4,384 nt of DNA from a virus (Duplodnaviria; Heunggongvirae; Uroviricota; Caudoviricetes): the IMG/VR virus record IMGVR_UViG_3300022758_000081, positions 1-4,384 of that record; one strand, 5' to 3'. Numbering within the stretch: the stretch's first letter is position 1; the number at the start of each line of letters is the position of its first letter. This document shows, in pieces, positions 1-4,384 of this stretch. The translations under genes were made by a program, and so were the position numbers. The notes under the pieces were generated by a model that saw only the letters and a program-made list of their open reading frames with translations, did no database searches and was not told where the DNA came from.

Positions 1-1096
1 GCCGGGATTCTGGAACTCTCCGTGAAATGCAACATGGGCGATCCGGATAACGATTTCTTCGAGCTTCGTGCAGATGACCTGCGTGATGAGCGTTCTTACC
101 GTCGCCGCATCCAGGCATCCGCCGAAAAAACTGGCGAATAACATTGAGTCAGCAATTGCCAAACAGGCAACCGAAATGGGCTCACTTGTTGTTCACGATA
201 CCCGCGCAATTGGTCCATCTACTGGCCTGTCTGGCTGGGATTTTGTGTCTGATGCAGAGCGCCTGATGTTCTCCCGTGAGCTAAACCGCGATATGGGCAT
301 CAGTTACTTCCTGAACCCTGACGATTACCGCAAAGCAGGCCGCAACCTGGTAGATGGTGACATCTTTGGGCGCGTTCCTGAAGACGCGTATCGCAACGGT
401 ACTATTCAGCGTCAGATTGCTGGCTTTGATGAAATTCTTCGCTCACCGAAACTTCCGGCAGTTACCAAGTCAACCGCTACTGGTGTAACTGTTTCTGGTG
501 CGCAGAAGTTTAAGCCGCAGGCATACACTCTTGATACCGATGGTAACAAAGAGAACGTCGACAACCGTGTTGCAACTGTGACCGTATCCTCCACCACCGG
601 GTTTAAGCGCGGCGACAAAATCAGCTTCACTGGTGTGAAATTCCTGTCTCAGATGGCGAAGAACGTGCTGACTGATGATGCTACTTTCTCAATCACCCGT
701 GTGATCGATGGTACTCACATCGAAATCACGCCGAAGCCGATTGCACTGGATGACGCGTCACTGACAAAAGAAGAGAAGGCTTACGCTAACGTAAACACCT
801 CTCTTGCTGATACCACTCCGGTAAACGTTCTGAACGTGGCAACAACCACCGCTAACGTGTTCTGGGCTGATGACTCAATCCGACTGCTGTCTCAGCCTAT
901 CCCGGTAACCCATGAGCTGTTTGCTGGCATGAAAACGTCTTCCTTCAGCATTCCTGGTATTGGTGTTAACGGCATCTTCGCAACGCAGGGTGATATCAAC
1001 ACTCTGTCTGGTAAGTGCCGTATTGCTGTGTGGTATTCAGCATGTGCTGTACGACCAGAGGCAATTGGTGTTGGTCTGCCTAACCAGACTGCGTGA
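1..1096 (+). CDS. P22-like major capsid (coat) protein, gp5 family; 5'-partial and interrupted by a +1 nt frameshift
   Basis: Frame 1 from the window start translates [38 protein letters not shown], which matches the P22 coat protein as I recall it (..[33 protein letters not shown]). That frame stops at TAA 139-141. Coat homology (KKLANNIE...EMGSLV...[10 protein letters not shown]...GDKISF.GVKFL.QMAKNVL...[12 protein letters not shown]) resumes in frame 2 and runs to TGA 1094-1096. The frame switch maps to the A6 run at 125-130. The ORF-track start at GTG 68 is internal, not the real start. Confidence 0.88.
2..22. repeat. Left copy of a 21-bp perfect inverted repeat (CCGGGATTCTGGAACTCTCCG) shared with the right window terminus
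   Basis: Direct comparison: the reverse complement of 4364-4384 is identical to 2-22, and similarity stops abruptly at the inner boundary. The repeat lies inside the coat ORF (encoding GILELS). Confidence 0.85.
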
Positions 1097-1104
1097 TAAC
1101 CAGA

Positions 1105-1126
1105 GGGAGCTTCGGCTCCCTTTTCT
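1105..1126 (+). terminator. Putative intrinsic (rho-independent) terminator/attenuator downstream of the coat gene
   Basis: Perfect 6-bp GC-rich stem GGGAGC (1105-1110) / GCTCCC (1115-1120) with a TTCG tetraloop (1111-1114), followed by TTTTCT (1121-1126), starting 9 nt after the coat stop codon. Partial terminators after the highly expressed coat gene are a known feature of tailed-phage late operons. Confidence 0.6.
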
Positions 1127-1139
1127 ATTGGAGATACCA

Positions 1140-1727
1140 ATGAGCGTAATGATTTTTCAGGCTGGCGGAGATACCAAAATCTGGGGGCGCAAGCTGAAAA
1201 CGAAAACCGTTGATCCTGATGATGTAGCTGTGCACTTAGCAAATGGCTGGTATAAGCACCCTGACGATGTTCCTGATGATCCTCTTGTTGGTGATCAAAT
1301 TGGGAGTGTTGGCGGAGGTGAAACTTCCCCAGTTGATATGGGCGAAGTGTCCGACGGTTATCACACTTTTAACGAGCTTTACGCTCACCGAGTGCGCCTC
1401 TTCTCATCGCTGATGCATGCTTACGCTGAGCTTTCGTGGTGGTCTCGCAAACACAGTGACGGTGAAGAGTGGGATGGCTGGATCATTGCTGGTATCACCA
1501 CTCCAGAAGGCGAAATCACTTATCACCTACCTGTTGAAGAAATCGAGTTCCTTCCTGAAGGTACTGAGCTTGAGTTCGGGAAAGAGTGGGATGGTCATGA
1601 AGCAAATGATGTTCTTGGACGACTCCTGAGTTTGCGTCCGGCCATTGCAGAGCCAGAAGAAAAACAGCGTAAAAAGCCTGGTCGAAAACCTAAGGCGGCA
1701 GCAGATGAACCTGACAACGAAGGGTGA
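1140..1727 (+). CDS. Hypothetical acidic protein (195 aa) between the coat and gp4 genes; function unknown, possible moron
   Basis: ATG 1140-1142 preceded by GGAG at 1130-1133 (6-nt spacer); open to TGA 1725-1727. The product is visibly Asp/Glu-rich ([53 protein letters not shown]) with a short basic C-terminal tail ([11 protein letters not shown]). Its 3' end overlaps the gp4 start by 23 nt. I do not recognise the family. Confidence 0.6.
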
Positions 1728-2316
1728 TTTAGTTCTTGCGGCATTACGTAAGCTCGGTGTGGCATCAAATGCCACGTTAACCGATGTCGAACCGCAGTCT
1801 ATGGAAGACGGCGTCAACGACCTTGAAATGATGATGGCTGAATGGCTTGGCGGTGATGCGTCACCTGGGATCAACGTTGGCTACATTTTTGCTGATGCAG
1901 ATGTCGCTCCGGATCCGGGCGATGAACACGGTTTATCAAATAACGCTATCAATGCCGTTATTTTCAATCTTGCCTGCCGCATTGCTCCAGATTATGCGCT
2001 GGAAGCGTCTGCAAAACTTATAACCACTGCCAGATACGGGAAAGAGCGACTCGTCAAACTGTCTGCAATGGACAGAGCAAAAGCCGCTAAATGTAAGTCC
2101 GGTTATCCAAACCGTATGCCTGTTGGTAGCGGTAACCAGTTGGCGAAGTGGAACGGTTGGAATTACTTCCACCGAAAGAACCTTGCGATAACGGGAGCGA
2201 ATAATGCCGATTCAGCAACTTCCGCTCATGAAAGGTGTCGGCAAAGACTTCCGAAATGCCGACTATATCGACTATCTACCAGTGAATATGTTGGCTACAC
2301 CCAAAGAAATCCTTAA
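1705..2316 (+). CDS. P22 gp4-like head completion / portal-binding tail accessory factor; 3' end uncertain (possible frameshift)
   Basis: ATG 1705-1707; the N-terminal region [33 protein letters not shown]...[14 protein letters not shown] matches my recollection of P22 gp4. As read, the frame runs 112 nt into gene 10 and ends in an Arg/Cys-rich tail ([15 protein letters not shown]...) that looks like out-of-frame read-through. A TAA at 2202-2204 in the -1 frame would give a TAATG stop-start overlap with gene 10. Confidence 0.72.
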
Positions 2317-3620
2317 CAGCAGCGGATATCTTCGCTCATTCCCGGGCATTGCCAAACGCTCTGATGTAAACGGTGTATCGCGCGGAGTCGAGTACAACAT
2401 GGCGCAGAATGCTGTTTATCGCGTGTGTGGTGGGAAGCTTTACAAAGGCGAAAGCGAAGTCGGTGACGTCGCCGGAAGTGGTCGCGTATCAATGGCGCAT
2501 GGTCGGACATCTCAGGCTGTAGGTGTTAATGGTCAACTGGTCGAGTATCGCTATGATGGCACGGTTAAAACCGTCTCAAACTGGCCTACAGACAGCGGAT
2601 TCACACAGTACGAGTTAGGTTCAGTTCGCGACATTACGCGCTTACGTGGGCGTTATGCGTGGTCAAAAGACGGAACTGATTCATGGTTTATCACTGACCT
2701 TGGAGACGAATCGCACCCTGACCGATACAGTGCACAATATCGTGCCGAGTCTCAGCCTGACGGTATTATCGGCATCGGAACATGGCGAGACTTCATCGTC
2801 TGCTTTGGTTCATCGACGATTGAATATTTCTCCCTGACTGGTGCAACCACAGTTGGTGCTGCTTTGTATGTCGCACAGCCATCGCTGATGGTGCAAAAAG
2901 GCATCGCCGGGACTTACTGCAAACGCCGTTTGCTGATTCCTATGCGTTTATCAGCAATCCGGCAACAGGTGCGCCGTCTGTATACATCATCGGCTCCGGT
3001 CAGGTGTCACCAATTGCCAGCGAGAGCATTGAGAAATCCTCCGCTCCTACACTGCTGATGAACTGGCTGATGGTGTGATGGAATCGCTGCGGTTTGATGC
3101 TCATGAGTTGCTGATTATCCACCTTCCTCGCCATGTTCTCGTGTACGACGCATCTTCAAGCGCCAATGGTCCGCAATGGTGTGTACTGAAAACAGGCTTG
3201 TATGACGATGTGTACCGCGCTATCGACTTCATTTACGAAGGAAATCAGATAACGTGCGGCGATAAGCTGGAATCGGTGACCGGGAAATTGCAGTTCGATA
3301 TCAGCAGTCAGTATGGGCTTCAACAGGAACACCTGCTGTTTACTCCACTGTTCAAAGCGGATAACGCCAGATGCTTCGATCTGGAGGTGGAATCATCCAC
3401 TGGCGTAGCTCAGTACGCCGACCGCCTGTTCCTCTCTGCAACCACTGACGGCATAAATTATGGGCGTGAGCAGATGATTGAGCAGAATGAACCGTTCGTT
3501 TACGACAAACGCGTTTTGTGGAAACGAGTAGGGCGCATCAGGAAAAACATTGGTTTCAAATTGCGCGTTATCACGAAGTCACCTGTCACTCTGTCTGGCT
3601 GCCAGATAAGGATTGAGTAA
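2204..3620 (+). CDS. P22 gp10-like tail accessory factor (head completion / tail hub protein), interrupted by two -1 nt frameshifts
   Basis: ATG 2204-2206 with GGGAG at 2193-2197. [49 protein letters not shown]... closely matches P22 gp10 as I recall it. Homology runs in frame 2 to about 2920, frame 1 from 2923 to 3033 ([38 protein letters not shown]), and frame 0 from 3033 to TAA 3618-3620 ([39 protein letters not shown]...LSGCQIRIE). The ORF-track pieces 2204..3058 and 3075..3620 are fragments of this one gene. The stop overlaps the next ATG as TAATG (3618-3622). Confidence 0.88.
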
Positions 3621-3757
3621 TGGCGGATTCGAATCTCAATGTGCCGGTAATCATTCAGGCTACACGGCTAGACACATCAGTCCTTCCACGCAATATCTTC
3701 TCGCAGTACATCTGCCCGTGGCGGAATTTGCGCGCAGCGAACGATGTGACGCACTGA
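3620..3757 (+). pseudogene. Remnant of the P22 gp26-like tail needle gene: N-terminal ~30 codons only
   Basis: ATG 3620-3622 is translationally coupled to gp10. [28 protein letters not shown] matches the gp26 N-terminus as I recall it ([28 protein letters not shown]). Similarity ends at about codon 29-30 (near 3705-3712). The frame then reads unrelated sequence ([17 protein letters not shown]) to TGA 3755-3757. No frame downstream encodes the expected coiled-coil needle shaft. Confidence 0.7.
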
Positions 3758-4038
3758 ACGGTGGTGTTAGTCAGAATGTATCGCCAGAACGCCAGCCCGA
3801 TTTCCTTGCTGAAGCCGCGAATCTCTGGCAGGTACATGGCGTGGCAATCGAATGTCAGCGGCTGAATCTCCTGATAGTAAACAATGCCGCCGAACTGCCC
3901 GTGCACGTTCACCTCAAAGTAACGGCAATCAGGTTTGTAGTCGTATCCATCACCGTTGTTGCTCCCGGCGATAATGTCAGGGTGATTTCCTACTGCTTCG
4001 ATCAGGTCGATGTTTCGCGTTGGTTTGAACTGAATCAT
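3655..4038 (-). CDS. Hypothetical protein (127 aa), unknown function; convergent with the late operon
   Basis: Start ATG is the complement of 4036-4038, with GGAG about 7 nt upstream on the minus strand. It overlaps the upstream gene's TAA as TAATG. Codon choice in the sampled core (aac ggt gat tac gac aaa cgt gtg) looks like genuine enterobacterial coding sequence, whereas the in-register plus-strand ORF 3613..4095 uses rarer codons (agg, gta). The last ~17 codons are antisense to the gp26 remnant and use rare codons (agg, gga, ata), so the native C-terminus is probably lost or altered. Confidence 0.55.
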
Positions 4039-4384
4039 TACTGCTCCGCGATTATCTTGATGGTTGTGGCAGTAAACGCCGCACCATTTGACTGAATGGT
4101 TAACGTACTGCCATTTGTGGCAAGAAAGCCGTCTTTATCCACGCTGAAGAACGTAGCTAACAGGATGTTGTCGGTTGTTGTCGCCGCATTACGACTGCTG
4201 ACCAGTGTGTCAGGAACAGAGCCGGAAAAGGTTAGCTGCATTGACCTGTTTGCGGTTCCGCTGGGCCACGTCCCGACGATCGACAGCTTGAAGAACAAGG
4301 TTTTGTTCTCGTTGAACACAACCATCTTGTTGTTAACGGTGTCGAAGAATGGTGCCAACGTGCCGGAGAGTTCCAGAATCCCGG
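4038..4384 (-). CDS. Hypothetical protein, C-terminal portion only (the gene continues beyond the right edge of the window); Thr/Ser/Asn-rich, beta-type sequence
   Basis: The minus-strand frame is open from the window edge (..GILELSGTLAPFFDTVNNKMVVFNENK...GSTLTIQSNGAAFTATTIKIIAEQ) to a TAA that is the complement of 4038-4040. The TTG at 4356-4358 reported by the ORF track is not a real start. The composition resembles a fibre, adhesin or receptor-binding domain, but I recognise no family. Its first visible codons lie in the 21-nt terminal inverted repeat. Confidence 0.5.
   Translation of the reverse strand, partial: GILELSGTLAPFFDTVNNKMVVFNENKTLFFKLSIVGTWPSGTANRSMQLTFSGSVPDTLVSSRNAATTTDNILLATFFSVDKDGFLATNGSTLTIQSNGAAFTATTIKIIAEQ
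4364..4384. repeat. Right copy of the 21-bp perfect inverted repeat (reverse complement of 2-22)
   Basis: CGGAGAGTTCCAGAATCCCGG at 4364-4384 is the reverse complement of 2-22. It is read in the same frame (GILELS) by the minus-strand terminal ORF. Confidence 0.85.

Follow-up and report, generated by a model that had tools for sequence, protein, structure and literature searches.

An apparently truncated tail-needle gene in a P22-like viral contig and its probable origin in a fold-back of the phage's own late operon

The late operon of the P22-like phages (Lederbergvirus) encodes the proteins of virion assembly, and in all ten relatives examined here its genes follow the canonical order gp10-gp26-gp14-gp7-gp20-gp16. 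The tail needle is gp26. Its N-terminal end plugs the portal channel, and without gp26 the DNA is packaged but falls out (PMC3741392). The N-terminal virion-binding domain of the P22 needle comprises 27 residues (PMC3741392). In the invertible segments of other systems (Mu G, P1 C and the shufflons), the inversion break lies inside a gene for a distal tail structure, after a conserved N-terminal domain. Microhomology-mediated rearrangements by template switching also occur in enterobacterial chromosomes in vivo, in the form of fold-back inversions and tandem inversion duplications. Inverted joins are likewise a product of amplification in the tube. When MDA was applied to one E. coli cell, inversions made up 85% of the 475 chimeras and for the most part linked sites less than 10 kb apart; complementary bases were present at 93.5% of the inverted joins of less than 10 kb, the stretches measured 2 to 21 nt over all chimeras, and direct-orientation joins of nearby sites were rare, with 11 cases among the 475 (Lasken and Stockwell 2007, PMC1855051).

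The stretch of DNA analysed here, called the window, is 4,384 nt long. Every coding segment in it belongs to a late (virion assembly) operon of the Sf6/HS1 type of P22-like phage, at 96-99% DNA identity, and the ORF list and the Pfam scans agree on this assignment. Homologues of coat, gp4, gp10, gp26 and gp14 are all present, with Pfam scores far above the gathering cut-offs (families P22_CoatProtein, P22_Tail-4, Phage_stabilise, Phage_tail_NK and DUF2824); the 29 N-terminal codons of gp26 were assigned through DNA homology to Sf6 gene 9. The closest relative found, L003 (GCA_949281575.1), is 98.2% identical to the left part of the window and 98.6% identical to the right part. It has the canonical gene order and a needle of 317 amino acids. 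Window positions 2-3707 correspond to L003 8864-12572 and are collinear with the coat, gp4, gp10 and gp26 genes of the Sf6/HS1-type operon. Beyond 3707 the window departs from that operon: it carries gp14 and the needle knob in inverted orientation, lacks the needle shaft and returns to inverted coat sequence, and its four frameshifts occur in no relative. The canonical collinear order in a single orientation thus extends only as far as 3707. The coordinates of the features are collected in Table 1.

Table 1. Features of the 4,384-nt window, with their positions, strand and supporting evidence
Feature	Position	Strand	Evidence
Coat protein gene (gp5), about codon 68 to stop	1-1096	+	Pfam P22_CoatProtein, E 1e-119; equals L003 8864-9957
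Private +1 insertion (extra G) breaking coat	124	+	Window form in 0 of 131 loci, canonical form in 31
GC-rich hairpin and T run immediately past the coat stop; probable coat terminator	1103-1122	+	Fold of -15.3 kcal/mol, z -2.4
WDGH-domain ORF (195 aa), intact, between coat and gp4	1140-1727	+	Pfam WDGH, E 1e-39
gp4 (head-tail adaptor), ORF extended	1705-2316	+	Pfam P22_Tail-4, E 1e-58
gp10 (head closure / tail hub), split into two ORFs, 2204-3058 and 3075-3620	2204-3620	+	Pfam Phage_stabilise
gp26 tail needle, native codons 1-29 (N-terminal plug domain)	3620-3707	+	Homology to Sf6 gene 9 and E. coli needle genes
Junction J1, 6-nt microhomology CGCAGT	3702-3707		Base-by-base three-way comparison
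gp14 (DUF2824), codons 1-112, inverted	3702-4038	-	DUF2824 profile positions 2-113 of 151, E 2e-43
Needle (gp26) C-terminal knob, codons 209-317 and stop, inverted	4038-4367	-	Phage_tail_NK profile positions 67-175 of 175, E 4e-71
Junction J2, 4-nt microhomology CGGA	4364-4367		Three-way comparison
Exact reverse complement (21 nt) of window 2-22 (coat codons about 68-75)	4364-4384	-	Repeat search, 100% complementary

Direct comparison with Sf6 showed that collinear homology ends at window position 3707, which is Sf6 position 8341 and codon 29 of the needle gene. The same limit appears in a far larger set of genomes. Homology ends between 3700 and 3715 in about 1,250 complete E. coli genomes (prophages) and in 116 phage records, and the left 3.7 kb is 95-97% identical in those E. 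coli genomes and in phages including Louie, IME10, Sf6 and HK620. Past codon 29 the gp26 ORF (3620-3757) reads 16 out-of-frame codons to a stop at 3755-3757, and the genes to the right of the break lie on the opposite strand. The first-pass annotation had placed the loss of gp26 at a rearrangement junction after about 30 codons, within 3690-3760, and the break at 3707 agrees with that statement. Comparison of 3600-4384 with P22-like genomes not only located this breakpoint but also traced the right-hand DNA to the same locus.

The right-hand DNA is the phage's own. Window 3702-4367 aligns in reverse complement to Sf6 9438-8773 (96.1% identity) and, free of gaps, to L003 13773-13108 (98.6%), and corresponds to a region that lies 0.5-1.2 kb downstream in intact relatives, turned around. 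Within it, the inverted gp14 segment matches the reverse complement of L003 13773-13437. The minus-strand gp14 ORF spans 3655-4038, its final 15 codons being antisense gp26. The knob frame (4041-4367, minus strand) matches the reverse complement of L003 13437-13108. Many E. coli prophages match the right-hand DNA at 98-99%, in genes annotated as 'DUF2824 family protein' and as 'tail needle knob protein'. In one of these genomes, NZ_CM142764.1, the left piece ends at 4494351 and the right piece occupies 4494783-4495448 on the strand opposite to that of the query. These coordinates show that the right piece is the normal downstream neighbour of the left one and that it is inverted in the window. 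Since L003 is the best match for both large pieces, one parental genome suffices to account for them.

At J1, codon 29/30 of gp26 is joined to the reverse complement of gp14 codon 112/113, a switch to the opposite strand about 1.2 kb farther downstream in the parental order. The two parental sites form an imperfect inverted repeat in which 12 of 15 positions agree, the gp26 copy reading CGCAGTCATATCTGC and the copy on the gp14 reverse strand CGCAGT-ACATCTGC. J1 is a site of microhomology and not a recombinase site. A second junction, J2, follows 660 nt later. All right-hand matches end at 4367, whichever relative is compared, and there the inverted knob is joined to inverted coat sequence by a same-strand jump of about 4.2 kb. 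Taken in order, the window runs from coat to codon 29 of gp26, then through inverted gp14 (codons 112-1) and inverted knob (codons 317-209), and then into the inverse of its own start, with gp26 codons 30-208, the coiled-coil shaft, absent from it. It ends 680 nt past J1, having turned back into coat, so that the downstream loss of the ejection genes (gp7, gp20 and gp16) and the tailspike given in the first-pass annotation is no more than conjectural.

The two ends of the window are thus a perfect inverted repeat of 21 nt (2-22 against 4364-4384), with an offset of one base at the left end. A chromosome cut at arbitrary points could not yield an inverted repeat exactly at both ends, and the window would therefore be a whole short contig whose ends were set by the hairpin-like structure of a molecule or of an assembly graph. 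A simple two-break inversion was considered and rejected: it would run past 4367 into inverted needle shaft, and neither J2 nor the terminal repeat fits it. A mate-pair circularisation junction was rejected as well, the polarity of J2 being of the deletion type and not end-to-start. Position 1 is a G, where all ten relatives have an A. This G is the complement of position 2 and may be the mark of a blunt palindromic fold-back; a single base is too weak to use. The length of the repeat, with its one-base offset, gives no clean fit to a specific assembler k.

Private differences are a further property of the window. Relative to L003 there are four single-nucleotide indels: in coat an additional G at 124, in gp4 GG shortened to G near 2177, and in gp10 AAAA shortened to AAA at both 2920 and 3033. 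Three of the four are contractions of single-base runs (GG, AAAA and AAAA). All four differ from the first relatives compared (10 of 10), and their window forms occur in none of 131 related loci, where the canonical forms were seen in 29-49. Set against these indels is one private substitution, at 3023, as judged from the 131 loci (median depth 50 on the left and 107 on the right). Between 386 and 2574, a length of 2.2 kb, the window is identical to L003 save for one indel. The indels break reading frames. Near 2177 the deletion removes the normal stop of gp4 near 2206, and the ORF reads on to 2316. In gp10 the Phage_stabilise profile is matched in two frames, at profile positions 1-239 and 289-469, and the split is caused by the two deletions, which are also seen in the alignment (window forms in 0 of 131 loci at both sites, canonical forms in 32 at 2920 and 49 at 3033). 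The essential head-completion genes are without intact frames: frameshifts affect coat, gp4 and, at two sites, gp10, and the native sequence of gp26 breaks off at codon 29 and that of gp14 at codon 112. Of the seven genes visible in the window, five are broken together.

Spontaneous mutations in E. coli are mostly substitutions, with indels making up roughly one tenth in mutation-accumulation studies. When the indel share is set at 0.1, a probability of about 5e-4 is calculated for at least four indels among five changes. A spectrum of four indels to one substitution is what indel-prone sequencing would be expected to give, and not what natural decay would. Three differences from the closest relatives fall within 19 nt of gp10 (3015-3033), namely two substitutions (3015 and 3023) and the 3033 deletion; such a cluster suggests a locally poor stretch of sequence.

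Neither junction was found in any other genome searched. Among 5,426 complete E. coli genomes none spanned J1 or J2; with 3600-4384 as the query, the best coverage was 85%, and among the E. coli matches listed all the top ones begin at query position 103. Both junctions were absent from 50,697 INPHARED phage records. The exact J1 pattern was absent from GTDB representatives, IMG/VR and JGI metagenomes, and that of J2 from IMG/VR and JGI metagenomes. The positive control was the canonical sequence spanning the J1 site, which at least 120 IMG/VR contigs contain. Look-ups for exact proteins returned no record of the gp14 fusion (127 aa), the N-terminal (284 aa) and C-terminal (181 aa) parts of gp10, or the frameshifted gp4 (203 aa). 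As the collections may have the source itself masked, these negative results mean that the junctions are not shared by other genomes, and do not mean that the junctions are nonexistent.

In structure the window is a chimera of three pieces of one HS1/Sf6-type P22-like late operon, folded back on itself, and we consider it moderately likely that this chimera is of technical origin, in amplification, sequencing or assembly. On that view the gene order of the parental phage is probably the normal one, gp10-gp26-gp14-gp7-gp20-gp16. The first piece (2-3707) runs forward, starting at coat codon 68 and stopping at codon 29 of gp26. At J1 the sequence changes strand and, over 3702-4367, continues backward along gp14 (codons 112-1) and the needle (codons 317-209), and at J2 it jumps on the same strand, to finish on the reverse complement of the first 21 nt of the window. 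Both joins look as expected for a displaced 3' end that re-annealed at a few complementary bases and was then extended, that is, for template switching. Judged from the sequence features, this switching most likely took place in vitro or in silico. Candidate sources are a chimera of strand-displacement amplification, a chimeric long read or a hairpin path in an assembly graph, with an indel-prone platform.

A technical origin is favoured because the two junctions lie only 660 nt apart, the end of the window is an inverted repeat of its start, the private differences are dominated by indels, and the junctions are unique to the window. Chimeras typically join nearby pieces of one parent, mostly in inverted orientation and over a few shared bases. 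J1 is such a join, inverted, over 1.2 kb and with 6 nt of overlap; J2 is direct, over 4.2 kb and with 4 nt. Other signs of technical error accompany them, namely the four private indels against one substitution and the 21-nt repeat at the ends. J1 thereby fits the predominant class of MDA chimeras, inverted joins of sites less than 10 kb apart with complementary bases at the join, whereas J2, a direct-orientation join of nearby sites, belongs to a class that is rare there (PMC1855051). Joins at microhomology are also formed in vivo, as are indels in runs of one base, which counts against an artefact.

The same junctions can be read as a genuine event. A microhomology-mediated rearrangement in vivo, in a decaying P22-like prophage whose frameshifts are real and pseudogenising, is possible, and we regard it as rather unlikely. 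Replicative template switching or illegitimate recombination at short microhomologies, inverted or direct, might, with a similarly low likelihood, have inverted the segment from gp26 codon 30 to gp14 codon 112, and a further deletion or inverted duplication might have joined the knob to coat. Put differently, and again tentatively, a fold-back in vivo may have made an inverted duplication of the head-gene region with an asymmetric centre, in which 8885-12572 (L003 coordinates) was joined to inverted 13773-13112. Joins at microhomology and the imperfect inverted repeat at J1 are as expected for template switching in vivo too, the simultaneous breakage of coat, gp4, gp10, gp26 and gp14 is coherent with a defective element, and E. 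coli and Shigella commonly carry prophages that are defective and rearranged. Short inverted microhomology is shared with known template-switch rearrangements, and the apparent flanking inverted duplication and asymmetric second junction resemble remodelled inversion-duplication joints. Against this, the putative inverted duplication is visible over 21 nt only, and the indel-dominated differences point to a technical origin, being improbable (about 5e-4) at an indel share of 0.1. Furthermore, past the second junction the window ends on the inverse of its own start instead of continuing into the needle shaft, and no other genome searched carries either junction.

Two other readings place the cause in a functional or foreign element. 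A programmed segment inverted by a recombinase, as in Mu G, P1 C or the shufflons, would swap the distal needle and with it the host range, and a break just after the conserved N-terminal virion-binding domain is superficially apt for such a constant/variable switch. However, the inverted state yields no alternative needle, only 16 nonsense codons and a stop, and it destroys gp14. No invertase gene is present in the window or beside the region in any of the ten relatives, the crossover shares only 6 nt and has no paired recombination site, and no relative shows the inverted state or a second knob cassette. Unlike the known switches, the window is without recombinase, sites or an in-frame alternative C-terminus, and its neighbouring gene is lost; a programmed inversion is effectively refuted and is very improbable. 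The first-pass annotation had named illegitimate or site-specific recombination as the route: the former fits the short microhomology, and the latter is to be dropped. It had also described the needle homology as replaced by unrelated, oppositely oriented genes, as in the insertion of, or replacement with, a foreign module. The opposite orientation is correct, the right-hand ORFs being on the minus strand, and the strand switch at 3707 is all that speaks for such a module. The description 'unrelated' is wrong, since, in reverse orientation, the 666 nt on the right match gp14 and needle-knob sequences from this phage group at 96-99% identity and include the needle's own knob (Pfam DUF2824 and Phage_tail_NK). 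With the right side belonging to the same locus, replacement by a foreign module is refuted, and its probability is close to nil.

As written, the copy would be unable to make stable virions, because its gp26 has only 29 native codons, its gp14 is truncated and its coat, gp4 and gp10 genes carry frameshifts. The first-pass annotation had predicted a virion without a tail needle and a probably non-infective copy, and this holds for the sequence as written, which could make neither needle nor stable virions. It had also named an assembly error at the junction as an observation that would overturn its account. That outcome is substantially borne out by two microhomology joins, an end that is the inverse of the start, a ratio of four indels to one substitution, and junctions shared with no other genome searched. 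The truncation is most likely not a real biological feature. If the window is a technical chimera, nothing about the phage follows from the 'truncated needle gene'. The case is a caution, in that an apparent 'truncated needle gene plus foreign module' proved to be the phage's own DNA folded back. The sequence bears several signs of a technical origin and is therefore not to be listed as a defective prophage, as a new junction of modules or as a switch of host range. Were the junctions real, they would amount to one private lesion in one dead prophage, a textbook case of illegitimate recombination with little wider consequence. Should the in vivo explanation be true, a natural inversion-duplication joint would have been caught inside a prophage morphogenesis operon.

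Several features of the operon and its relatives were observed in addition. The hairpin just past the coat stop is at the position equivalent to the 't coat' terminator annotated in Sf6; it was not listed by a consensus terminator scan. A protein identical to that of the WDGH ORF is on record in 290 blocks, and among the matches listed it lies between coat and gp4 in 10 of 10 places. Sf6 has only the small gene 6 at that location. In the relatives L002-L011 the needle gene after gp10 occurs in three lengths, 233, 282 (the length in Sf6) and 317 aa. A knob-domain match is found in the 282-aa and 317-aa classes, none is found in the 233-aa class, and the knob piece of the window is closest to the 317-aa class. 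Judged by the residue numbering used for it, the needle of HS1 (PMC3741392) appears to be the counterpart of the 317-aa class. HNH endonuclease genes (NUMOD4/HNH_3) are present at differing borders of the operon in four relatives. In L008 the gene (11207-11791) sits within the 5' end of gp10, of which a 34-aa stub remains. In L007 it lies between gp10 and gp26 (12506-13051), and in L006 and L011 between scaffold and coat (8073-8588 in both). By their placement, these genes look like mobile homing-endonuclease insertions.
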